Shown: positions 4,011 through 53,694, numbered from the stretch's first letter. The stretch is DNA of 64,000 nt from a virus (IMGVR_UViG_3300025141_000048); one strand, 5' to 3'. Notes: a model not told the origin generated them from the sequence alone. Made by a program: numbers and translations.

Positions 4011-5072
4011 ATGAACTCCCTCGCCCTTTTATTTGTAGCCATTGTTTTTGCGGCCTCTCCTGCCCCGGAAACGCCTTCTGTGACGGTTGGTATCCATCCA
4101 TTTACGCCTTGCGTTATGGTAGGGGCTGATGGGGAAGCAACGGGCTTCGATATTGATATCCTCAACGATTCTATGAAACGTGCTGGAATCGATTACCAGA
4201 CCCGTTCATACGAAACCGTTACCGATCTATTGAACGCTCTTCGCACCGGAGAGATCGATGCGGCAATGGCTGGCTTGTCCATTACATCCAAGCGGGAAAG
4301 AGAGTTTGACTTTACCCAACCCTACTACAAATCAGGATTAAAGATTCTGATTAGCGAGAACGGGGCGACATACAGCTTTTGGAAATTCAAGTATGCTCGC
4401 AACGTCATTAAGGCATTGATCAATCCTGCCGTTGTTGAACCCTTTCTTTGCATGGGGGCATTGATCATTGGATTTGCTTTCCTCATGTGGATGTGTGAAA
4501 AAGGGTCAGATTCAATCAACGATAAATTCTTCCCTGGTATTTTTGAAGCCATCTACTATTCAGTCGTTACCAGTTCGACGGTTGGTTACGGCGACATTAC
4601 TCCCAAGAAATGGGTTGGACGATTCATGGCGGTCTGTTTGATCTTTCTTGGTATCGTCATGTTCGCCAATGCTACCGGCGTATTGAGCGTTGAATACAAT
4701 CAGGACATGCTCGATTTCAAAATCACCGGTCCCCAGGATTTGAAAGATGAGATCGTTTCTACGAAGCAAGGTACTACTTCAATGGATGCGGTCAAGAAAT
4801 GGGAAGCATTGGTTCAGCCGGTTGACGACATCGAAAGGGCATTGGATCTTCTTGAAGCGGGCAAGGTTGCGGCAGTTGTTTTTGATGCTCCAGTCATTGA
4901 TTGGGCATCCAAACAAAGAAGCAGCGTCATCTCCGTTCCGGGGTTGTATGAGCCTCAGAATTATGGTATCGTATTGTCAGAAGGCAGCAGTATGAAAGAG
5001 CCTTTGGACAAAGCTATTTTGTCAATGCAAGAAGATGGAACTTGGAGTAGGATTCATGACCGTTGGTTCTAG
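4011..5072 (+). CDS. GluR0-like ligand-gated K+ channel (split amino-acid binding domain + pore)
   Basis: Signal peptide, PBP type 2 segments (GFDIDIL...SITSKRE...FTQPY; PQNYGIVL), TM-pore-TM with filter TVGYGD. Confidence 0.85.
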   Translation: MNSLALLFVAIVFAASPAPETPSVTVGIHPFTPCVMVGADGEATGFDIDILNDSMKRAGIDYQTRSYETVTDLLNALRTGEIDAAMAGLSITSKREREFDFTQPYYKSGLKILISENGATYSFWKFKYARNVIKALINPAVVEPFLCMGALIIGFAFLMWMCEKGSDSINDKFFPGIFEAIYYSVVTSSTVGYGDITPKKWVGRFMAVCLIFLGIVMFANATGVLSVEYNQDMLDFKITGPQDLKDEIVSTKQGTTSMDAVKKWEALVQPVDDIERALDLLEAGKVAAVVFDAPVIDWASKQRSSVISVPGLYEPQNYGIVLSEGSSMKEPLDKAILSMQEDGTWSRIHDRWF

Positions 5073-10148: not shown

Positions 10149-10835
10149 ATGGCGAGATTTAACGAACACTTCTTTGACAAAATAGACAATGAACTAAAGG
10201 CATATTGGTTAGGGTTTATATGGGCAGACGGTTCTATCACTTGCAATAATGGCACTTATTCATTTGCCATACATTTACAAGACAGAGATCATTATCATCT
10301 TGATATCTTGGATAGAGATTTATCTTATGAAGGCAGCCGTAACGGAGGTAAGTATTCGTGGTTCTCTAAATATATGATTGGAAGAATAATGCATTTGGGT
10401 CTCGTGCCAGATAAAAGTCATAACGAAGTTTCAATTCCACGCATGCCTAAGCGTCTTATTCATCATTTTTGGCGAGGAGTTTTTGATGGGGACGGCATGA
10501 TAACCACAAGATCTAAAAAATGTCTTGATGATTTTAGATTCTCAATTTGTGGTACTCACACTACTGTGACGTCATTCAGCGAATGGATGTTGAAGTTTGG
10601 TATCAAAAAACAAAAGATTGCTAAAGCAAAAAATCAATATGGCGAAACACATGCATGGAAATTTGAGGTGGGAGGAAATCGACAAGTAGCAGCATTAATG
10701 AGTCAGTTATACCATCGATCTACTCGATATCTTCTTCGTAAATATAAGATTGCTTGCGAATTGCATACAATAAACGGTGAAATAAGCCCCTCTTTTAAGC
10801 GTAAGTATATTGACAAACCATTCAAAATACGGTAG
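10149..10835 (+). CDS. Free-standing two-motif LAGLIDADG homing endonuclease
   Basis: AYWLGFIWADGSI and FWRGVFDGDGMI; C-terminal LLRKY. Confidence 0.9.
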   Translation: MARFNEHFFDKIDNELKAYWLGFIWADGSITCNNGTYSFAIHLQDRDHYHLDILDRDLSYEGSRNGGKYSWFSKYMIGRIMHLGLVPDKSHNEVSIPRMPKRLIHHFWRGVFDGDGMITTRSKKCLDDFRFSICGTHTTVTSFSEWMLKFGIKKQKIAKAKNQYGETHAWKFEVGGNRQVAALMSQLYHRSTRYLLRKYKIACELHTINGEISPSFKRKYIDKPFKIR

Positions 10836-10846
10836 CATAACAACCT

Positions 10847-12265
10847 ATGAATGGGAACGATATTATTTCTCTCGGATTCGGGCCGGGACCGGTCGTAGGT
10901 ATCGCCCTGTCCGCTGCCAATCTGTCTTCGGAGAGAGGCAGGCGAGATAAGGATATCAAGCTTACCTTGTCGGCTTTGAAAGAGAAGCCCAAGGACTTTC
11001 TGCATGATGAAATCTTTGGGGAGTTGGCTCAAGCTTTGGCTAAGCAAACTGTTGATGATGAAAAACTTAAGAAGATGCTTGAAGACACTAAGCCTAAACC
11101 TTTTAAGATCTGGGGCGAAGAGGGTATCGGTAATAACGCTATAGAACAGATGCATACAGCCATGCAACTTCCCTTTGCGGTTAAGGGGGCTTTGATGGCG
11201 GATTCACATCTTGGCTACGGTCTGCCAATCGGGGGAGTTATCGCTTGTGATAATGTTGTTGTACCTAATTTTGTCGGAGTTGATATCGCATGCCGGGTTA
11301 AGCTGACTATTCTCGACATGCCCGCAAAAGAACTGGCTGGCATGAAAGATAAGTTCAAGAATGCTTTGCTGAGAGAAACCAAATTCGGCAAGGGAGTTGA
11401 ATTCACAAGAAGCGGTCGTCATAATCACGGAGTTATGGATGACCCTCTTTGGGATAAGATTGAACTCCTTAGGAATGGGAAAAACAAGGCTCATAACCAA
11501 CTCGGGACCAGTGGAAGCGGGAATCATTTTGTCGATATCGGAACCATAAAAGTATTTGACGAAGAACTGGGAGAAGGCGAATATGTTGCCATTCTAAGCC
11601 ATAGTGGTAGTCGTGGCATTGGCCATAAGGTAGCTTCTCATTACCATAAGCTGGCTATCTCTTTGATGCCCAAACAGTTTAATCACATTGCAGCATTCCG
11701 TAACTTGGCATGGTTGAGTTTGGACACGGATGAAGGTCAAGAGTATTGGGAAGCCATGAACCTCATGGGACGCTATGCCTCTGCCAACCATGCTCTGATC
11801 CATGAAAGCATCATCCGAAACATCGGCGTCAATGCCATGTCAACGGTTGAGAACCATCATAATTATTCTTGGCTTGAAGAGCATGATGGTAAGGACTATA
11901 TCGTGCATCGTAAGGGAGCAACGCCTGCTGCTATTGGAGAAGTTGGGGTAATTCCTGGAACGATGGCTGACTCTTGCTTTGTTGTTAGGGGCAAGGGTAA
12001 CGCTGAATCTCTGTGTTCTTCTTCTCATGGGGCGGGACGCCAGATGTCTCGTACCGATGCAAAGAACAGCTTTACATGGAGCGAATGGAAGAGGGTTCTG
12101 GAAGAGAAGGGCATTGAGTTGATCTCTGCCGGATTGGATGAAGTGCCTGGAGCATACAAGGACATTCATGAGGTCATGGCAGCACAGGTCGATCTTGTCG
12201 ATCCTATTGCCGAATTTTCTCCTAAGATTGTTCGTATGGCAGATGATGGAACGGCGGAGGATTAA
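10847..12265 (+). CDS. rtcB: RtcB RNA-splicing/repair ligase
   Basis: ADSHLGYGLPIGG, GVDIACR, GSGNHF, NHHNY, HRKGAT, PGTM, SHGAGR, DEVPGAYK. Confidence 0.95.
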   Translation: MNGNDIISLGFGPGPVVGIALSAANLSSERGRRDKDIKLTLSALKEKPKDFLHDEIFGELAQALAKQTVDDEKLKKMLEDTKPKPFKIWGEEGIGNNAIEQMHTAMQLPFAVKGALMADSHLGYGLPIGGVIACDNVVVPNFVGVDIACRVKLTILDMPAKELAGMKDKFKNALLRETKFGKGVEFTRSGRHNHGVMDDPLWDKIELLRNGKNKAHNQLGTSGSGNHFVDIGTIKVFDEELGEGEYVAILSHSGSRGIGHKVASHYHKLAISLMPKQFNHIAAFRNLAWLSLDTDEGQEYWEAMNLMGRYASANHALIHESIIRNIGVNAMSTVENHHNYSWLEEHDGKDYIVHRKGATPAAIGEVGVIPGTMADSCFVVRGKGNAESLCSSSHGAGRQMSRTDAKNSFTWSEWKRVLEEKGIELISAGLDEVPGAYKDIHEVMAAQVDLVDPIAEFSPKIVRMADDGTAED

Positions 12266-13933: not shown

Positions 13934-14316
13934 GGGGCCGCTTGGTATCGACTGGATAAGTTGAGTTGCTAAGCTGCATGCAGTGGTTGGTCGAACGGCC
14001 ACTTAAAAATTCGACTAAAAAACAAATGCCGACAATGGCATCGCTGGCAGCATCGGCCCACAGGCCGATCTCGCCCTGGCTGCTTAGATCAGCCAGCGTT
14101 TCAGGTCGCCCGCTCCTGCGGGGCGTCTGAGGCGAACGAATAGCAGGATCGTCCGTAGCTTGGAAGCCCATCCAATCTACAGGGTTAAATCTAAACGGGC
14201 TGGCAGGGCTTGAGGCTGTCTCTGGTCGCCTCCCTGTAAGATTAAAACAGAGGATAAGCATGTAGAGGCTGGTGGTTTGCTATCTCAGGACGAGAGTTCG
14301 AATCTCTCCGGCTCCA
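13934..14316 (+). ncRNA. ssrA: tmRNA; tag (A)ADNGIAGSIGPQADLALAA at 14028-14087
   Basis: 5' GGGGCCG pairs with 3' CGGCTCC-A (G3-U70), T-loop TTCGAAT, resume context AAAAAACAAAT-GCC, tag ends LALAA*. Confidence 0.92.
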
Positions 14317-15463: not shown

Positions 15464-16717
15464 ATGACTACTGACATCAAAAACATTGACGCCATATGGT
15501 CTAACTTTACATACGCACGATGGATGGAACGATATGTAAGTTATGACGCTTTCTTGTCACTTAAAGAGAGATACGCAGAACCGCATAGGTTCTATCATAA
15601 CGAAAATCATCTTGCCTATCTCTTCTCCAAAATTCTAGGCATCCAAGACTTGAAGTTGGCATTCGGGTCTGGTGGATATGGCTTGGTCTCATCCGATATG
15701 GTTAGCATCTTGGTTGCAGCCACCTTCTACCATGACGCTGTCTACGAAGTTGATTCTGTGACCGGCAGCAATGAGAGACATTCTGCTGACCTATGGATAA
15801 AAGACGTTAAGGCTCATGGCAAGTGCAATAATACTGAAGAGATTAGTGATGTATGGAAATGCATCCACGCAACTTCTGGTTGCCCTTCGGAAATGTCGAT
15901 TCCTAGTTTCAATGATTCGATTGACGAATGGGCGAAATGGTTTGCTGTTCTGGATTGGTCCATACTGGGATCTCCATTGCATGAGAAAATTCTTTATGAA
16001 GAAGCCATCAGGAAAGAATACGACCATGTAGACTACAGCGACTACATGAAAGGACGATTGGCATTCCTGAGCGAAGTCAGTAATGCAGATAATGGTTGGA
16101 ATGTTTCTGCGTTGATCGATTACGTTGAGCATCGAAAGATCAGTCTGGGCATTTATGCGGGTACGTTTTCCCCGTTCCATGTCGGTCATGCAGATGTTCT
16201 GCGTAAGGCTCAGAAACTGTTTGACAAAGTCATCGTTGCTATTGGTGTCAACCTGGAAAAGACGACTATACGTACGGAAGGAGTTGTTAATCAACTTCCT
16301 CATACATGCGTTAGGTCATTTGCAGGATTGCTGACTGAATTCATCCAAGAATACAAGAACGATGGGGTCTATTCCGGCATAACCGTTATCCGGGGTTTGA
16401 GAAACGCCAGTGATTATGCTTATGAAATGAACCAGTTCAGGGCCATGCAGGACTTTATGCCCGATTTGGAAATCGTGTTTATACCATGCTCCAAGGAACT
16501 TGAACATGTATCGTCTACGTTAGTAAGAACCATTGACCATTTCGCTCCATCTGAAGTGGATCGTTACATGGTCATTCCAGAGGGGAGATCTGGTAATGTT
16601 AGAGAAAAAGGTAGGTCAGAAGAACAACGGTGGGCCAACGAACAAGATCAAGAGGCCCTGGAAGGGTTGAAATCAATTTATGGCAAGAGATCCACAACGA
16701 ATTCCTCGTGTCCTTGA
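15464..16717 (+). CDS. coaD: HD-domain phosphohydrolase fused to phosphopantetheine adenylyltransferase
   Basis: YAEPHRFYHN and FYHDAVY (HD); YAGTFSPFHVGH, IRGLRNASDY.YE, VSSTLVR (CoaD). Confidence 0.8.
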   Translation: MTTDIKNIDAIWSNFTYARWMERYVSYDAFLSLKERYAEPHRFYHNENHLAYLFSKILGIQDLKLAFGSGGYGLVSSDMVSILVAATFYHDAVYEVDSVTGSNERHSADLWIKDVKAHGKCNNTEEISDVWKCIHATSGCPSEMSIPSFNDSIDEWAKWFAVLDWSILGSPLHEKILYEEAIRKEYDHVDYSDYMKGRLAFLSEVSNADNGWNVSALIDYVEHRKISLGIYAGTFSPFHVGHADVLRKAQKLFDKVIVAIGVNLEKTTIRTEGVVNQLPHTCVRSFAGLLTEFIQEYKNDGVYSGITVIRGLRNASDYAYEMNQFRAMQDFMPDLEIVFIPCSKELEHVSSTLVRTIDHFAPSEVDRYMVIPEGRSGNVREKGRSEEQRWANEQDQEALEGLKSIYGKRSTTNSSCP

Positions 16718-26058: not shown

Positions 26059-26643
26059 ATGAGAAAACATACAGTCATTATCTTTGGGGGAGCATTCGAT
26101 CCTCCGCATCGAGGCCATGAGGCTTTGATTAGGGCTGCACTTAAGTTGCATCCCGTATGGATCATGCCTGCTTACTTCAACCCCTTTGGCAAGGAGATGT
26201 CTCCTGCTACTGATCGTTATAATATGTGTCAGTTGATGGCCGATCAAACGGGAGCCCAGGTATCCGCTTTTGAATTGATCAATTGCTTGGTCAACGGAAC
26301 CTATGATTCCGTTTGTCAACTCAAGAAAGCATTCGATTGTAACTTCAAAGTATTGATCGGAATGGATCAGGCTAACTGCATCCATGATTGGCGTCATTCC
26401 GACTCTTTGCTTAAAGAGGTTCCTTTTATCGTTACCAAAAGATTCGGAGAAAAGGGAAACGACGACAGATGGTACGAAGAATCTCCTCATCAAATGTTGC
26501 AAGTTCCCGGAACCGTTAATGTATCTTCGACTCAGGTACGCAACGAATTAAGAATTACCAACAGTAAGGTTGGTAAGTGCGTCAATCCTGATGTATTGCA
26601 ATACATTAGTAAGAACCACCTTTACGAGCCTGTCCATGCCTGA
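26059..26643 (+). CDS. nadD: Nicotinate/nicotinamide-nucleotide adenylyltransferase
   Basis: FGGAFDPPHRGH, IGMDQ..W, VSSTQVR, YISKNHLY. Confidence 0.9.
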   Translation: MRKHTVIIFGGAFDPPHRGHEALIRAALKLHPVWIMPAYFNPFGKEMSPATDRYNMCQLMADQTGAQVSAFELINCLVNGTYDSVCQLKKAFDCNFKVLIGMDQANCIHDWRHSDSLLKEVPFIVTKRFGEKGNDDRWYEESPHQMLQVPGTVNVSSTQVRNELRITNSKVGKCVNPDVLQYISKNHLYEPVHA

Positions 26644-27456: not shown

Positions 27457-27854
27457 AAGAAGACTAATCATGAAGGTATATCTTGAACATGAACTACATC
27501 TAGATGACGGTGATTTCCCCATCATAGCTGTACTGAACCTAATTGTAACGGTAATAATCTTGGCGGCAACGGGGGCAGTGCTGTATCCCTGTGAGGTGTC
27601 TCAAGTAATCGAGAGGTTTTGTACGAGAAGTTAAGTGTAGGACCAGATTAGGAGACAACCATGCCAGCACAACCTCACGCCAAGGCTTTTGAAGAAACAG
27701 AACAGATGCTCAAAGATTTGGAAGAGCGTAGAGAATCTATGAAAGGTCAGGATCTAGACACTCTAATGCTTGATGCTATGACCTTGACACTCAAAAACCA
27801 ATTGACAATCATGAGAATATCCTCATAGAATGAAGACACAGTTTCCAGAGATCT

Positions 27855-28076
27855 ATGATCAAAAAGTATGGAAGACCTGGGGATATTTTGCCATGGCGCT
27901 CTGCGATAAGAACGCCAAATTTCAAAAAACTCTTAGCCCATAACGATATCGATGCCATTCTTCAATTGTGTGAGAATAGGATGTCTATCGATCCTCTTGA
28001 TGCATTGATGTTCATGTGGGGCTATGCCGATAAAGAGTATAGATACGTAGGAGATATCTATTGTGAAATTCGGTAG
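27855..28076 (+). CDS. Hypothetical protein
   Basis: 73 aa ORF. Confidence 0.4.
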   Translation: MIKKYGRPGDILPWRSAIRTPNFKKLLAHNDIDAILQLCENRMSIDPLDALMFMWGYADKEYRYVGDIYCEIR

Positions 28077-28641
28077 TTTGGCAATGGTTAAACTTCTAAG
28101 AGACTATGATTTTGATTCAGTCTTAGATGTCGGAGCAGGAGAACTGAGACAAATCAATAGATTTAGAGAAGTGGGTAAAATAGCCCAGTACATCAGGCTG
28201 GAAGATGGCGACGATTACATGAAAGTCGAAATAGAAGATAAACAGGAATGCATATGGTGCTCACATGTGTTAGAGCATCAGCCCAATGTTATGCTGTTCT
28301 TGGAAAAACTATATGACGACCTTATGATTGGCGGGATATTGGCTATTACTGTTCCGCCAGAGAAGCCAGACATTGCCAGTGGTCATGTAACGACATGGAA
28401 TGCCGGTTTATTGATCTACAATCTTGTCTTGGCGGGATTTGATTGCAAAGATGCAGCAATCAGAACGTATGGATATAACGTTAGTGTTATTGTCAGGAAG
28501 ACTGAATGCAGAACAGAAAAACAAATACCCGTCATAGACATACATGAGTTGCAAGATCGCTTACCAGAATGCTGTAGACACGATCAAGGGGGCAATTCAA
28601 AGAATTCATTCGCAGGTAATATACAAATATGGAATTGGTAA
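28063..28641 (+). CDS. Class I SAM-dependent methyltransferase
   Basis: VLDVGAG, CIWCSHVLEH, GGILAITVP. Confidence 0.85.
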   Translation: MKFGSLAMVKLLRDYDFDSVLDVGAGELRQINRFREVGKIAQYIRLEDGDDYMKVEIEDKQECIWCSHVLEHQPNVMLFLEKLYDDLMIGGILAITVPPEKPDIASGHVTTWNAGLLIYNLVLAGFDCKDAAIRTYGYNVSVIVRKTECRTEKQIPVIDIHELQDRLPECCRHDQGGNSKNSFAGNIQIWNW

Positions 28642-29445
28642 ATGAGTGAAGAAATCATCTATGGAAAATCCGAAATGCCGTCAACTCTTGACACCGGATT
28701 GGGTTGCTTGAAAAGCAGTGGGGCAAAAGGTCTTCTTTATCATACCAGAGAATTGGGTACGGCGGAAGAACATGTAGCCAATTGGTGCGAATCTAACAAT
28801 CTTGAATTCATTCTTGCGCTGCAATGCAATTACGACGACGATGAGCTTATCGAAAAAGCCAAAGCTTATACGAACAAATTAGCCATAGGAAATATGACAG
28901 ATGGAGAATGGGTGGGAGGACCCAACCGAGCAAGAAGATATGTCAATGCAGTCAAAAGACATGGCATAGAATGGTTCCCCCTCATTACCCACCGATGTAT
29001 TCTGTCAGATTTGAAAACGAAACATGTGATCCCTTATCTAAAAGATTATGTCTGCATCTGTCTATGTGGATACATCGTGGCTGGATATCTATTTGCAGAT
29101 GAAAGAGTCCCCCATCAAGACTGGAGACCTAAAGAGTTTATCACCAATGGGGAAGATAGGCAAGGCTATACGTCTATTACAGGGGAGAACTTGAACGAAT
29201 TGTATGGAGCTACGGTCGAAACCTTTACTGAATACGTCTCGTCTATGACGATAATATCAGGTGTAGGATGGCAATCTGGGCTCAAAGTAGGGACAAGGGT
29301 TTATGTTAAGAAATTAGGCTTCAAAGGTATAGTTTCCGGCCTACCGTTTGATCTTGAGGGGACTGATCAAATAGAAGTCAAAGACGAACCTGATCGTTAC
29401 CCGGATGCCTGTGGTATATTTCCCTATGTTAGGAGAGAAGAATGA
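28642..29445 (+). CDS. Hypothetical protein (possible TIM-barrel-like fold)
   Basis: 267 aa alpha/beta alternation; coupled within the methyltransferase cluster. Confidence 0.55.
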   Translation: MSEEIIYGKSEMPSTLDTGLGCLKSSGAKGLLYHTRELGTAEEHVANWCESNNLEFILALQCNYDDDELIEKAKAYTNKLAIGNMTDGEWVGGPNRARRYVNAVKRHGIEWFPLITHRCILSDLKTKHVIPYLKDYVCICLCGYIVAGYLFADERVPHQDWRPKEFITNGEDRQGYTSITGENLNELYGATVETFTEYVSSMTIISGVGWQSGLKVGTRVYVKKLGFKGIVSGLPFDLEGTDQIEVKDEPDRYPDACGIFPYVRREE

Positions 29446-30326
29446 GCGAAGTTACATGGACAGTATGCGTAACACCGAATGCCCATCATGGTGGACCGCA
29501 TCTGGGGCATTTATGGTATATGGCCCATTGTCGCTATATGTATAACGAAATTAAACGTCGTAACGAAAAGTATGCGTTGGGCATAGACTTGAAATGGAAT
29601 ATTCTGTTTGACTTCCATTCTCGACCAGATAGCGAAAGCATGTTTATTGACATGCTTGACTGGATGGGCATGCCTCCAGATCAAGTAGACTACCTTAAGG
29701 AATGGGAAACGTGGCAGAATGTATATATCGTTTTGATGTCTTCTTTCTCGCCGTATTTTGTTGAATGGGATTATCTGGATCGTTATTGGCATCAGAGCGA
29801 ACTAGACCCCGAAAGCTTCTTATGCAAGTGTCTTTACTTCTATCACAACAATGTCTTCTGGCATATAAGAGGCATGGACCTTAGAGACGAAGGATCGAGA
29901 ACAGAGGGGTTACTCAAGGGTACGATCTTGAGGCAGCCCGAATACTGGATGATTCCATTACTCATGAAAGGTAAAAACCAAGAAGAGAAAATTGGCGGAA
30001 GTGATGGGGCTCCCCCTGAGTATCAGTTGTCAGACATATGGGATCGCCATGAAGCGACTGACATACTTAGGTTGACAATGGATATACTGGATTTTGATAC
30101 ATCGGGAGAAACTGTTACAGATATGATCAAGCAATTCTATCCCATCAGTTCAACCAAGCTTCACACTCAAGCTAACCGCAAGGATTTGATTATTCCTGAA
30201 GATTGGAAATCCATGTTAGGTACTAGAAATACAGAACCCATAGCGCCTCAAGCCTCAAGTAAAAATCCAACCGCAAGGGACTTGGACAAAGAGGCAACGA
30301 TTGAGGCAGTGAAAGGATTGGCTTAA
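29442..30326 (+). CDS. Divergent class I aaRS catalytic-domain protein (GluRS/GluQ-like, no anticodon-binding domain)
   Basis: HIGH-like PHLGH, MLDWMG, HIRGMDL, PEY.MIPLL, KMSKS-position EKIGGS. Confidence 0.6.
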   Translation: MSEVTWTVCVTPNAHHGGPHLGHLWYMAHCRYMYNEIKRRNEKYALGIDLKWNILFDFHSRPDSESMFIDMLDWMGMPPDQVDYLKEWETWQNVYIVLMSSFSPYFVEWDYLDRYWHQSELDPESFLCKCLYFYHNNVFWHIRGMDLRDEGSRTEGLLKGTILRQPEYWMIPLLMKGKNQEEKIGGSDGAPPEYQLSDIWDRHEATDILRLTMDILDFDTSGETVTDMIKQFYPISSTKLHTQANRKDLIIPEDWKSMLGTRNTEPIAPQASSKNPTARDLDKEATIEAVKGLA

Positions 30327-30898
30327 TGGAACAACTAGCATCATATTACGACGAAGTTTACGCTCGCCCTCATAGCGACTATACCATTTCCGTAGAAGAG
30401 GCTCCATGGATACTGTTGTGGGAAACCGCTGCTTCTCATGCCATAAAGCATGGTCCCTGTCATATCGTGGATATTGGATGCGGACCAGGTCATTTTCCCA
30501 AAGTACTACTAAAGCGGCATCCAACATGGATAGAAGAAGGAGGAAGTTATACAGGTATTGACTTCAGCGTTAAAGCTATTGAGTTGGCTCAAAAGGCTGC
30601 ACCTCAATTCTCTTTTGACATTCGTGATCTAAATGATAGCAAGCCTATCCCTGATGCAGATATGTATGTTACGATGGAATTTCTAGAACACATACATGAA
30701 GATCTAAGTGTTATGAAGAGGCTTAAGCCTGGGTCTGAGATTTTCCTTACCGTACCTAATGTTAATGACATCGCTCATGTTCGACATTTCCCTGAGTTGC
30801 AAAATGCCATCAACCGGTATGGTCAGTTTATTGACATCCAGTATGCCTATGGAATTACTGATGAACATCATGCAATTTTTGGCAAAATTAAAGGCTAA
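30326..30898 (+). CDS. Class I SAM-dependent methyltransferase
   Basis: IVDIGCGPG, YTGIDFS, EFLEHI, FLTVP. Confidence 0.85.
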   Translation: MEQLASYYDEVYARPHSDYTISVEEAPWILLWETAASHAIKHGPCHIVDIGCGPGHFPKVLLKRHPTWIEEGGSYTGIDFSVKAIELAQKAAPQFSFDIRDLNDSKPIPDADMYVTMEFLEHIHEDLSVMKRLKPGSEIFLTVPNVNDIAHVRHFPELQNAINRYGQFIDIQYAYGITDEHHAIFGKIKG

Positions 30899-30932
30899 TT
30901 ATACTTCAGCGAAACCAGATACCCGAATTTTA

Positions 30933-31571
30933 ATGAAACTGCATCTGGATAACCAAGTTAATAAATGGGCCAACGCAGGCGAGCGGTCCACCGAACACGC
31001 AGATCATCCATCAACAGATTGGATCATAGATTTCATTTGCGAACCGCTACCCGAAAGCGTATTTGAGATAGGTTGCGATACCGGAGTTAATCTTCTACGA
31101 ATCAAGCATAGGCATCATGATATTTGTGCAGGCGGTGCAGATATTAACCCCGTCGCCATAGAACAAGCCATACAGGTTTTCAAAGACAAATGCATACCAA
31201 GTAACGAATTGTTCTGCATGCCTTCATGGGATTTGTCCAGCATACCTGACAAGTCTTTTGACGTTTCCTTTTCCAAGGCAGTGTTCACGATTGTCAATGA
31301 TTCCTTGATATTCCCATCCATTACAGAACTGATACGTATCACCGAAAAGAAGATAGTCCTGTTTGAACATCATGATCCCGATTCAACCAGAATGGGTAGG
31401 AGAAGAAAGCGATGCGGGGACAAGGGCAAGCATTGGTATAGAGACTATGTCAATCTTCTAATGCCCCTTGCAAAGTCTGTCAAAACTGTTAAGATGCCAA
31501 GAGAAATATGGCCTGAAAGTTTGTCTTGGCAGATGTTCGGACATGTCATTATTGCTGAACTGTGGGAATAG
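30933..31571 (+). CDS. Class I SAM-dependent methyltransferase (start uncertain; 30870 also possible)
   Basis: VFEIGCDTGVNL, GADIN, FDVSFSKAV. Confidence 0.8.
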   Translation: MKLHLDNQVNKWANAGERSTEHADHPSTDWIIDFICEPLPESVFEIGCDTGVNLLRIKHRHHDICAGGADINPVAIEQAIQVFKDKCIPSNELFCMPSWDLSSIPDKSFDVSFSKAVFTIVNDSLIFPSITELIRITEKKIVLFEHHDPDSTRMGRRRKRCGDKGKHWYRDYVNLLMPLAKSVKTVKMPREIWPESLSWQMFGHVIIAELWE

Positions 31572-31575
31572 AGAT

Positions 31576-31968
31576 ATGAAATCCATACCTGGAAAATCAA
31601 TTCTAAAGGGCCATGCTCAACGATTGGGCATAATGATTAGGATACGGAACAAGAACAACTACAATGGCAAAGGTCATTACGTTGGAAGACCTACGCCATT
31701 AGGCAATCCCTTTACCCATCACAATAAGAAAACCCAAGCGCAATTCAAAGTCGATACCGTAGAAGAGGCTATCGAACGATACCTTCCTTGGCTTGAAGAA
31801 CAACTAGAATCAGACAATGAAACGTCTCGTATGTTCTTTATGCTGGAAGAAGAGTATCGAAAAGAAGGTGTCTTGACCCTCATATGTTGGTGCTATCCCG
31901 ACCCCTGCCATGCTGATGTAATAGCCGAGCTTATTGTCAGCCGAAATCTGCTAGAAGACGCTGATTAA
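31576..31968 (+). CDS. DUF4326 family protein
   Basis: YVGRPTPLGNPF … LICWCYPDPCHADVI. Confidence 0.85.
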   Translation: MKSIPGKSILKGHAQRLGIMIRIRNKNNYNGKGHYVGRPTPLGNPFTHHNKKTQAQFKVDTVEEAIERYLPWLEEQLESDNETSRMFFMLEEEYRKEGVLTLICWCYPDPCHADVIAELIVSRNLLEDAD

Positions 31969-52332: not shown

Positions 52333-53694
52333 ATGCCTACAGTTAAGCCCGGCGATTCTGGATTCGTTGACGAAAGTATCCTCAAAACCGCTACTTGGAC
52401 GACCCGCCTTATCATGGTGGACGTTGGCGTAAACAATAACAAATTCCTCGAAGCCTACGTTTTGCCCGATGGGCGATTCGTTGTCATCAATGGACGGGTC
52501 GGCGTTACTCGAAACCAGCAGCCGTCTAAGAATGGCGGACAGTCCGTTGCTGATAAATGGTACAACTCGAAAATCAAAAAGGGCTATCAAGAGGAACGAA
52601 CCGTGGCGGGATCGAATGCCGCCTCATCGTCCGGTAGTCAAAAGGTCGCTTCCAACAAGCGATCATTGTTGCAGATCGCTTTGGATCAGATTCAGGGCAG
52701 CCAAGTTGTTCAGGACTTGGTTAAGTATCTGGTCGATGCCAACATTCATACAATCACGTCGGCAACCAAGATCACGTTTGATGAATCGGCGGGATCATTC
52801 CGAACCCCTAGAGGTTTGGTTGAAGCGTCGGCCATTGATGAAGCAAGGGATTTGCTTGTTCCTATCGGTGACTATGTCGCCAAGGGAGATATTAACAAAA
52901 AGGGTTGCCTCGATGTTGTCTCCGAATACTGCATGTTGATTCCGCAGAATGTCGGCATGACCAGAGGTTGGCATGAGCGTTTGTTCTCATGCGTTGCTGA
53001 CGTTCAAAAGCAGAACGATGTTTTGGATGCGTTGTCATCTTCGCTTCAAGATGCGTTGACTGCCAATGCAAAGCCGACTAAGGGCAAAAAGAAAAAGGCT
53101 GATGCTCCCAAGGTCTTTACCGTCGAGCTTGAGCCGGTTGCTGATAAGAAGATTGTCGCAGCGGTTCGTAAGAAATACAAAGCTGACAAAGGCAATCATT
53201 ACGACGTTGCCACTTTGGATATCAAGGCGGTTTGGGCGGTTCATCTTCCGCCTGTTCGTTCGGCGTTTAAGACTGACGGAATGATTGTCGGCGGCGTCAT
53301 GCAGTTGTGGCATGGAACGAAAGCGTCCAACTTACTTTCGATCTTGAAGGGCGGATTGGTTATTCCGTCGTCAAGCTCTGGTCATGTTACTGGTCGAATG
53401 TTTGGCGATGGTTTGTACTTCTCCGATCAATCGACTAAGAGCCTGCGTTATGCCACGAATGCTTGGGCAGGTGGCGGGCGAACGGATCGGCGTTTCATGT
53501 TCCTTGCTGACGTTGCAATGGGCAAGCCTCATCATCCCAACAATTCTAATTGGTCGATGCGTAAAGCTCCGGCTGGTTATGATTCGACGTATGCTAAAGC
53601 CGGTGCTTGCGTTTCAAACAATGAGATGATCGTTTACAGAACGTCGCAAGCTGACTTGACTTATCTGATTGAGTTTACGCCAAACGGTTGCTGA
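52333..53694 (+). CDS. WGR-domain + regulatory helical domain + PARP catalytic domain (ADP-ribosyltransferase)
   Basis: NNNKF.E…NGRVG (WGR-like); LWHGT, GRMFGDGLYF…SLRY, FLADVAMG, NNEMIVY. Confidence 0.88.
   Translation: MPTVKPGDSGFVDESILKTATWTTRLIMVDVGVNNNKFLEAYVLPDGRFVVINGRVGVTRNQQPSKNGGQSVADKWYNSKIKKGYQEERTVAGSNAASSSGSQKVASNKRSLLQIALDQIQGSQVVQDLVKYLVDANIHTITSATKITFDESAGSFRTPRGLVEASAIDEARDLLVPIGDYVAKGDINKKGCLDVVSEYCMLIPQNVGMTRGWHERLFSCVADVQKQNDVLDALSSSLQDALTANAKPTKGKKKKADAPKVFTVELEPVADKKIVAAVRKKYKADKGNHYDVATLDIKAVWAVHLPPVRSAFKTDGMIVGGVMQLWHGTKASNLLSILKGGLVIPSSSSGHVTGRMFGDGLYFSDQSTKSLRYATNAWAGGGRTDRRFMFLADVAMGKPHHPNNSNWSMRKAPAGYDSTYAKAGACVSNNEMIVYRTSQADLTYLIEFTPNGC

Follow-up and report, generated by a model that had tools for sequence, protein, structure and literature searches.

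A GluRS-like gene in a tightly packed phage operon

The window analyzed here, IMGVR_UViG_3300025141_000048, is a single strand of 64,000 nt with positions counted from its first letter, and it looks like a portion of a marine giant phage. It carries an operon that includes the gene for P0001, a protein resembling the catalytic core of glutamyl-tRNA synthetase (GluRS). Proteins of this operon also occurred on metagenomic contigs of up to 338 kb. The initial annotation described five coupled genes, and we found five plus-strand open reading frames (ORFs) at these positions:

28063-28641, plus strand: P0003, putative accessory S-adenosylmethionine (SAM) methyltransferase 1, 192 aa (Methyltransf_23, E 0.008, sub-threshold; phrog_22502, E 3.4e-5)
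28642-29445, plus strand: P0002, protein of a new TIM-barrel family, 267 aa (AlphaFold2 (AF2) model, pLDDT 86, eight-stranded β/α barrel)
29442-30326, plus strand: P0001, catalytic-core protein of the GluRS/GluQRS fold, 294 aa (AF2 model, fold searches, profiles)
30326-30898, plus strand: P0004, conserved class I SAM methyltransferase 2, 190 aa (Methyltransf_31, E 7e-9, 35.9 bits vs a cut-off of 27)
30933-31571, plus strand: P0005, putative accessory SAM methyltransferase 3, 212 aa (TIGR03587, E 5.7e-11, below cut-off; Methyltransf_25, E 1.8e-5)

The TAA stop codon of the P0003 gene was followed directly by the ATG of the P0002 gene (28641/28642), the P0002 and P0001 genes shared an ATGA overlap (29442-29445), and the P0001 and P0004 genes shared a TAATG overlap (30326). 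Below, L001-L026 denote metagenomic contigs with relatives, and P0006 and P0012 are other members of the GluRS-like family.

P0001 is modeled as a diverged GluRS/GluQRS catalytic core

The assignment of P0001 as a GluRS-like catalytic domain was borne out by fold searches and profiles. In VIA-align, an AF2 model built from the family alignment (pLDDT 82, pTM 0.81) matched bacterial GluRS with Z 16.0 (6brl; 231 residues, root-mean-square deviation 3.7-3.8) and Z 15.8 (1j09), and matched GluQRS with Z 14.6 over 218 residues (4a91). GluRS and GluQRS ranked first in Foldseek, and an exhaustive scan of 48,161 chains, independent of Foldseek, placed GlxRS enzymes at ranks 1-9 (Z 14.1-16.0) and other class I aminoacyl-tRNA synthetases (aaRS) at Z 12.3 or below. 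The ESM Atlas model of P0001 gave TM 0.67 to a GluRS-family cluster and 0.62 to a GluQRS cluster. A 24-member profile searched against the PDB found GluRS (E 0.0016) and E. coli YadB/GluQRS (E 0.0095) over the region from the RGxD strand to the KMSKS loop, and hhalign matched the family to E. coli GluQ with 89% probability (E 2.3e-6). Other HIGH-motif nucleotidyltransferases, the class that the initial annotation had named as able to overturn its assignment, fared much worse in the same 48,161-chain scan (PPAT, Z 8.2; NaMNAT, Z 7.5; vs 16.0 for GluRS), and P0001 had no PF01467 match in a search that detected this domain in two neighboring ORFs.

Residues 4-264 of P0001 aligned solely to the catalytic and stem-contact part of GluRS (residues ~1-350), in agreement with the initial view that no anticodon-binding domain is present; the tail (272-294) was disordered. 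No Pfam, NCBIfam or PHROG model matched P0001, and even with E values of up to 0.1 allowed, the 24 family members yielded no Pfam match, so none reached the PF00749 gathering score. A phmmer search with P0001 returned no PDB match, a search of the BFVD viral fold library returned only full-length giant-virus synthetases, and no longer, fused form of the family was found, which is weak evidence. The family is sparse. HMMER, run exhaustively against 1.84 billion cluster representatives, yielded only 25 relatives, all metagenomic and forming 25 clusters at 50% identity. These proteins were 19-34% identical to P0001, except for P0006, a Tara homologue, at 71%. On these models, P0001 descends from the bacterial GluRS/GluQRS catalytic core, from which it has diverged greatly, and it has left translation.

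Active-site motifs are conserved, reduced or lost

Three motifs named in the initial annotation proved real:

29496-29510, plus strand: HIGH-type motif PHLGH, residues 19-23
29865-29882, plus strand: IRGMDL, residues 142-147, equivalent to the GluRS/GluQRS 'VRGxDL' strand and aligned to VRGADL of E. coli GluQ
29985-30002, plus strand: EKIGGS, residues 182-187, a degenerate KMSKS remnant aligned to KLSKQ of GluQ

Conservation of these motifs differed sharply. First, His20, Gly22, and His23 of the HIGH-type motif were present in 22 of the 22 members that have an N-terminus, each of which also carried the signature P-N-A-x4-5-P-H-[ILV]-G-H-[LVM]-W. Second, the RGxD strand was kept almost throughout (Arg143 in 23/24 members, Gly144 in 24/24, Asp or Glu at 146 in 23/24), and Pro166 and Trp255 were also invariant or nearly so. 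Third, the KMSKS loop had shrunk to K-[IL]-x-x, with Gly, Ser or Ala at the position of the second lysine in all 24 members and the first lysine present in 15 and missing in 9. Fourth, the acceptor-binding insertion comprised only ~45 residues, ~50 fewer than in GluQ, and was the least confident part of the model; residues 85-125 of P0001, which correspond to the cysteine-bearing segment of GluQ, contain no cysteine, and there is no zinc knuckle. Finally, the columns equivalent to the N-terminal arginine of GluRS (8-10) were hydrophobic in all members, according to a manual alignment of the first strand, a region outside the automatic alignments. Family members were unusually rich in tryptophan, with an isoelectric point (pI) of 5.0-6.9 in 23 of 24 cases and 8.3 in the other.

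From this pattern of motifs and insertion, P0001 probably still binds ATP and a carboxylate, the acyl substrate probably need not be glutamate, and the apparatus for binding the tRNA 3' end has probably largely gone. Because the second KMSKS lysine is lost throughout and the first in 9/24 members, however, ATP-dependent activation may be weak or altered. Transfer of an amino acid in particular is conjectural: the second lysine is missing and so, by manual alignment, is the N-terminal arginine that binds glutamate in GluRS. Taken further, these losses could mean that P0001 is catalytically dead and assists the TIM-barrel enzyme as a noncatalytic subunit, for binding or scaffolding. We consider this very improbable, since near-invariance of H-x-G-H, Arg143, Gly144, Pro166, and Trp255 at 19-34% identity fits a preserved active site, and some class I-type adenylating enzymes, such as pantothenate synthetase, function without a KMSKS motif.

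P0001 compared with synthetase paralogues outside translation

Few synthetase paralogues act outside translation (GluQRS, MshC, EpmA, and hydrazine synthetases), and each opened new biochemistry. GluQRS (YadB/GluQ), a stand-alone GluRS core of ~300 residues that also lacks an anticodon domain, is a close counterpart, and its VRGxDL strand and the following 'P..PL...G.K' segment align with P0001. The reaction of GluQRS, which glutamylates queuosine-34 of tRNA(Asp), places an ester on a secondary hydroxyl of the cyclopentenediol of queuosine, a diol outside ribose, and this chemistry is near to sugar acylation. P0001 differs from GluQRS in lacking KLSKQ (the second lysine is lost) and the zinc-binding cysteine cluster, with a Cys-free segment at 85-125 where E. 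coli GluQ has Y-C-T-C...H-C; in its much shorter insertion; in the absence of a PF00749 match and, by manual alignment, the probable absence of a conserved RFAPSP-motif arginine; and in having a TIM-barrel partner and a glycan-gene context instead of tRNA. By fold P0001 is a GlxRS-derived core, but with no full KMSKS motif, no match to the family hidden Markov model and several GluQRS features missing, it should not be filed as GluQRS. We prefer to see in it a new branch of the non-translational synthetase paralogues, carried by phages and tied to a new obligate partner.

These likenesses nonetheless raise the alternative that P0001, like GluQRS, aminoacylates a modified base such as queuosine on phage or host tRNA, with the methyltransferases acting as tRNA methylases. 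The fold, length and profile match to GluQRS suit this idea, as do the 19 tRNA genes of the window, which include Asp(GUC) and Asn(GUU), the presence of an RtcB gene, and the best PHROG match of P0004, 'tRNA methyltransferase' (E 8e-7). We nevertheless judge it improbable. The zinc-bearing acceptor-binding insertion and KLSKQ are missing, family proteins are acidic to neutral, no queuosine-pathway gene was seen, and the evidence from relatives given below points elsewhere.

Bacterial GluRS, the best structural match, shares the HIGH motif and RGxD arginine with P0001 at 12-15% identity, but P0001 lacks both anticodon-binding domains, most of the insertion and a full KMSKS motif; as modeled, it could not work in translation. 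MshC (Cys:GlcN-Ins ligase) and BshC likewise use an aaRS-type Rossmann core outside translation, in their case to ligate an amino acid to a sugar derivative, and both appeared in the P0001 fold list (3c8z, Z 10.2; 4wbd, Z 9.7). Their similarity is far weaker than that of GlxRS enzymes, however, and they derive from CysRS, serve cellular thiol biosynthesis and have no TIM-barrel partner. In PyrN-type hydrazine synthetases, a class I aaRS-like domain activates glutamate and O-acylates a hydroxyl group to form an O-aminoacyl-hydroxylamine (bioRxiv 10.1101/2025.08.22.671884). This small-molecule O-acylation by a class I core (9l8v, Z 10.7 to P0001) is a useful parallel, but these enzymes belong to the MetRS lineage, carry a cupin fusion, form N-N bonds in natural products and occur in an unrelated gene context. 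By analogy with GluQRS and MshC, the chemical step to sugar acylation would be short.

A TIM-barrel protein is the conserved partner of the GluRS-like protein

Whether the operon's genes occur together elsewhere had been proposed as a check on the initial reading, and the answer was mixed. A stable partner exists, but it is the TIM-barrel gene, labeled unknown in the initial annotation, and not the methyltransferases, of which only P0004 recurs in the closest relatives. The GluRS-like and TIM-barrel genes were adjacent or within two genes of each other in 6/6 independent lineages with enough flanking sequence (window/L009/L010, the L001 group, L004, L007/L026, L011 with two pairs, and L012). 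A complex prediction for P0001 and P0002 scored 0.00 and provided no evidence either way.

Residues Glu89, Asp123, Cys140, Cys142, Tyr149, and Asp153 were invariant in the P0002 family, which also has a Gly-rich loop after strand 7. Fold matches were generic, with many TIM-barrel families equal at Z 11-12.4. DAHP synthases, of interest because DAHP/KDO8P/NeuB-type ulosonate-phosphate synthases were considered for the barrel, were among these (Foldseek E ~5e-5; VIA Z 11.1 vs 12.4 for the top match), and P0002 had neither a Pfam match nor any other profile match. We also entertained a TGT/DpdA transglycosylase, which would have linked the barrel to queuosine or 7-deazaguanine, and set it aside as improbable: no tRNA-guanine transglycosylase (TGT) appeared in the top 50 of the Foldseek or exhaustive VIA lists, which also speaks against a tRNA-modifying role for the operon, there was no Pfam match, and strand 6, not a zinc subdomain at the C terminus, holds the two invariant cysteines.

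Fusions and partners of the barrel were more informative. In L007/L026 and L016 it formed the C-terminal domain of a Capsule_synth (KpsC/KpsS-type) protein, in L011 it carried a HAD-like C-terminal domain with sub-threshold 5'-nucleotidase matches (E ~1e-5), and in L012 a PNK3P-type HAD gene followed it. Together with the conserved Gly-rich loop, these Capsule_synth and HAD associations suggest that the TIM barrel acts on a phosphorylated substrate. The barrel was also found without a GluRS-like gene amid sugar genes, in L018 (GT2, GT9, radical SAM) and L016 (radical SAM, Capsule_synth).

Two further observations concern barrel copies. On L018 (5520-12179), a phage contig with a PolA-UDG fusion and DUF3987, the barrel is part of a large glycan cluster that has no GluRS-like gene and that comprises parts of a sugar ABC transporter, a GH123-like protein, GT2, a GT2-B12-binding-radical SAM fusion, the TIM barrel, a radical SAM protein, and GT9. 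On L012 (7151-8462, minus strand), near a TnpB/Cas12f-like gene, an additional copy is split over two or three frames and is probably a frameshifted or decaying paralogue.

Gene neighborhoods in relatives favor sugar tailoring

Lineages with only 20-35% identity in both core proteins kept similar company. L001 and L004 represent two related but distinct BPP-1-like marine podovirus lineages, on contigs 36-40 kb long that carry terminase, portal, Bbp19, and capsid genes. Both have the order portal, two small genes, Capsule_synth, TIM barrel, GluRS-like and further genes; in L001 only, a DXD glycosyltransferase (Gly_transf_sug) lies between the TIM-barrel and GluRS-like genes, and a capsid gene follows the cluster in L001, whereas L004 ends earlier. 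The L007 cluster lies directly upstream of the portal gene and contains Capsule_synth-TIM, Methyltransf_24, a GT47-like protein, a 385-aa protein and the GluRS-like protein. Neighbors on the P0012 contig included GDP-mannose-dehydratase/epimerase-type enzymes, an RmlD-like reductase, a GT2-methyltransferase fusion, more methyltransferases, a GDSL esterase and a prepilin-like protein, and those on L011 included two Methyltransf_24 genes, a PhyH dioxygenase and a genuine prepilin-like protein. Because Capsule_synth, GT-A, GT47, GT2, GT9, sugar-nucleotide enzymes, phosphatases and varied methylases recur in this way, the company of these genes points to a sugar-tailoring role. The earlier inference of aminoacyl transfer plus methylation on tRNA, DNA or a glycan is thereby narrowed: the neighborhoods favor a glycan, and tRNA is unlikely, since the flanks of the surveyed relatives contained no tRNA genes and the GluRS-like gene there stood amid glycosyltransferases.

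The prepilin-type N_methyl proteins (G|FTLVELL) adjoin the GluRS-like/TIM pair on two unrelated contigs (L011:8074-8841 and the P0012 contig); they could be substrates or merely markers of a PVC-type host.

In mycobacteriophages, phage-encoded glycosyltransferases attach glycans to the proteins of capsid and tail tube (Freeman et al., 2023, cited in PMC12619734). The podovirus relatives resemble these cassettes in carrying the pair with glycosyltransferases inside a structural module. Since three podovirus lineages share this placement, a virion glycan is by analogy an attractive target. There are differences: that text reports no aaRS-like ligase or TIM-barrel partner, hosts and lineages are not the same, and virion glycosylation, demonstrated in the mycobacteriophages, would be a prediction for the phages studied here.

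The operon might instead be a DNA hypermodification module, in which a ligase and methylases decorate a modified base or a DNA-linked glycan and so evade restriction. Glycans added by phage glycosyltransferases are a known form of DNA hypermodification (Pyle et al., 2024, cited in PMC12619734). In addition, the TIM barrel of L018 and L023 adjoins replication genes (PolA-UDG, DUF3987, SNF2 helicase), and 5'-nucleotidase- and PNK3P-type HAD domains accompany the barrel. This alternative is unlikely in our view, as the three podovirus lineages hold the cluster by or between portal and capsid genes rather than among replication genes, no hydroxymethylase, 7-deazaguanine-pathway or base-transglycosylase gene was seen in any flank, and enzymes of the Capsule_synth, GT9, GT47, and GDP-sugar types usually belong to pathways that make polysaccharides or glycoproteins.

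Proposed role of P0001 as a sugar-tailoring ligase

The reading that we favor, with conviction and doubt in about equal parts, is that P0001 is an ATP-dependent ligase for acyl or aminoacyl groups whose role is to tailor a sugar or glycan, accompanied by methylation that varies. A companion proposal, that the GluRS-like and TIM-barrel genes form a conserved two-gene unit of marine phages directed at a virion, host-envelope or DNA-linked glycan, seems to us evenly poised. The fold, motif conservation, gene coupling, pairing and neighborhoods were observed; for ATP use, acyl donor, sugar acceptor and final target, we infer the following course. The retained HIGH motif would bind ATP, and P0001 would adenylate a carboxylate, either of an amino acid such as glutamate or of a sugar acid, held in part by the conserved RGxD arginine. 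The acyl group would then pass to a sugar hydroxyl or amino group, much as GluQRS acylates the queuosine diol and MshC an amino sugar. The TIM barrel would probably make or bind the phosphorylated sugar, possibly an ulosonic-acid-type intermediate because of its KpsC/KpsS fusions and HAD partners, and SAM methyltransferases, here one conserved and two accessory, would methylate the product.

Several points weigh against this reading. The KMSKS losses described above bear on its first chemical step. The sample of neighborhoods is small, with ~9 independent contexts, and no glycosyltransferase was recognized among the 56 scanned ORFs of the 64-kb window or in the L011 and L012 flanks. P0002 has no specific fold or profile match, which leaves its link to sugar phosphates indirect, and DNA-linked glycans made by phage glycosyltransferases offer another setting for the same genes. 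Finally, the operon itself is flanked by NAD/ADP-ribose genes (NMNAT, DUF4326), and a tRNA array begins 7 kb downstream.

We know of no GluRS-derived glycan-tailoring enzyme of this kind. Searches of cultured-phage records gave no DNA or protein match to the region, P0001 or P0002; an IMG/VR pattern scan with P0001 found nothing; the family alignment is too divergent for pattern scans; and a search of the literature on phage GluQRS-like genes or aaRS-like glycan ligases turned up nothing relevant. A bolder proposal, which we put forward tentatively and regard as doubtful, is that P0001 represents the first enzyme of class I aaRS origin to specialize in tailoring glycans, attaching an amino acid to (or amidating a sugar acid of) a methylated virion glycan together with a TIM-barrel sugar-phosphate enzyme. 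Should P0001 acylate sugars, amino-acid-decorated glycans, about whose ligases little is known, would gain a named type of enzyme, and the range of phage-made glycans, so far shown for mycobacteriophage virions and for DNA, would widen to include giant phages and the abundant podoviruses of the sea. The TIM-barrel family, some members of which are fused to KpsC/KpsS-like transferases or HAD phosphatases, also merits characterization as a second enzyme that lacks annotation.

Methyltransferases and the ends of the operon

Three SAM methyltransferases had been annotated. P0004 passed the Pfam cut-off, and sub-threshold P0003 and P0005 were upheld by motif I and phrog_22502. P0003 starts at a GTG 8 nt past an AGGAG and has the motif I sequence VLDVGAG. 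P0004 had only weak best NCBIfam matches (Tam/UbiG/BioC-type), and its orthologue in L009/L010 was 79% identical. The best NCBIfam match of P0005, TIGR03587, is a pseudaminic acid biosynthesis-associated methylase; its likeliest start, the ATG at 30933, lies 34 nt past the preceding stop and suits the length of the best model. Neither P0003 nor P0005 had a homologue in the closest relatives, L009/L010, and some distant lineages had methylases of other families. Judged by gene content, the first and third methyltransferases are accessory tailoring genes.

At both ends the operon extends beyond the five genes originally listed:

27802-27831, plus strand: candidate sigma-70-like promoter before the operon, TTGACA-18-TAGAAT (11/12 consensus; a pattern match only, of a kind not enriched here)
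27855-28076, plus strand: 73-aa ORF, first gene of the operon (~80% identity in relatives L009/L010/L014, where it lies directly 5' of the TIM-barrel gene)
31576-31968, plus strand: DUF4326 gene (ATG 4 nt past the stop at 31571; PF14216, E 8.7e-18; phrog_464)

The 73-aa ORF had no Pfam match. L009/L010 kept this ORF, the TIM-barrel, GluRS-like, and P0004 genes and, farther away, DUF4326, at ~70-80% protein identity, and no other gene of the operon. The DUF4326 gene lay downstream in L009/L010 and in no distant lineage, and its protein probably has a separate NAD/ADP-ribose function; this rhodanese-phosphatase-like domain is predicted to act on ribose-linked phosphates of ADP-ribose derivatives (Iyer et al., PMC9503650).

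Coupling to DUF4326 counts somewhat against sugar tailoring and opens the alternative that the operon's target is not a glycan but a ribose derived from NAD/ADP-ribose, a different small metabolite or a protein, much as for EpmA, MshC or a hydrazine synthetase. The operon lies 1.4 kb downstream of a NadD-like NMNAT gene, a PARP-like gene is present in the window, class I aaRS-like enzymes such as MshC and the PyrN-type synthetases acylate small molecules (bioRxiv 10.1101/2025.08.22.671884), and prepilin-like proteins, as noted, adjoin the GluRS-like gene on two contigs. We regard this alternative as quite unlikely, because outside the closest relatives, in the other five lineages, the pair is found without DUF4326 and NMNAT, whereas sugar enzymes are recurrent neighbors across lineages.

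Other genes of the window

The NAD/ADP-ribose toolkit of the window comprises a protein with PARP catalytic and PARP_reg domains (52333-53694, plus strand), the NadD-like NMNAT (26059-26643, plus strand), DUF4326, and a second CTP_transf_like protein with a 220-aa N-terminal extension (15464-16717, plus strand). We considered the NMNAT as a sugar-nucleotide cytidylyltransferase and rejected this assignment, as an NCBIfam search identified it as NadD-like. The window has two HIGH nucleotidyltransferases, and a PspA operon and genes for an R2K ATP-grasp protein and a protein resembling a sigma factor are present as well. Upstream of the tRNA array, ARAGORN called a tmRNA (13934-14316, plus strand) whose tag peptide ends in ALAA. 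The RtcB gene (10149-12265, plus strand; E 2e-86) matched in two stretches and only from residue 209, and a LAGLIDADG-like ORF precedes it, an arrangement that may reflect an intein or homing endonuclease. Finally, the gene at 4011-5072 (plus strand) combines an SBP_bac_3/Lig_chan-Glu_bd periplasmic solute-binding domain with the two-TM potassium-channel pore Ion_trans_2, and its product is a GluR0-like ligand-gated channel on a phage-like contig.

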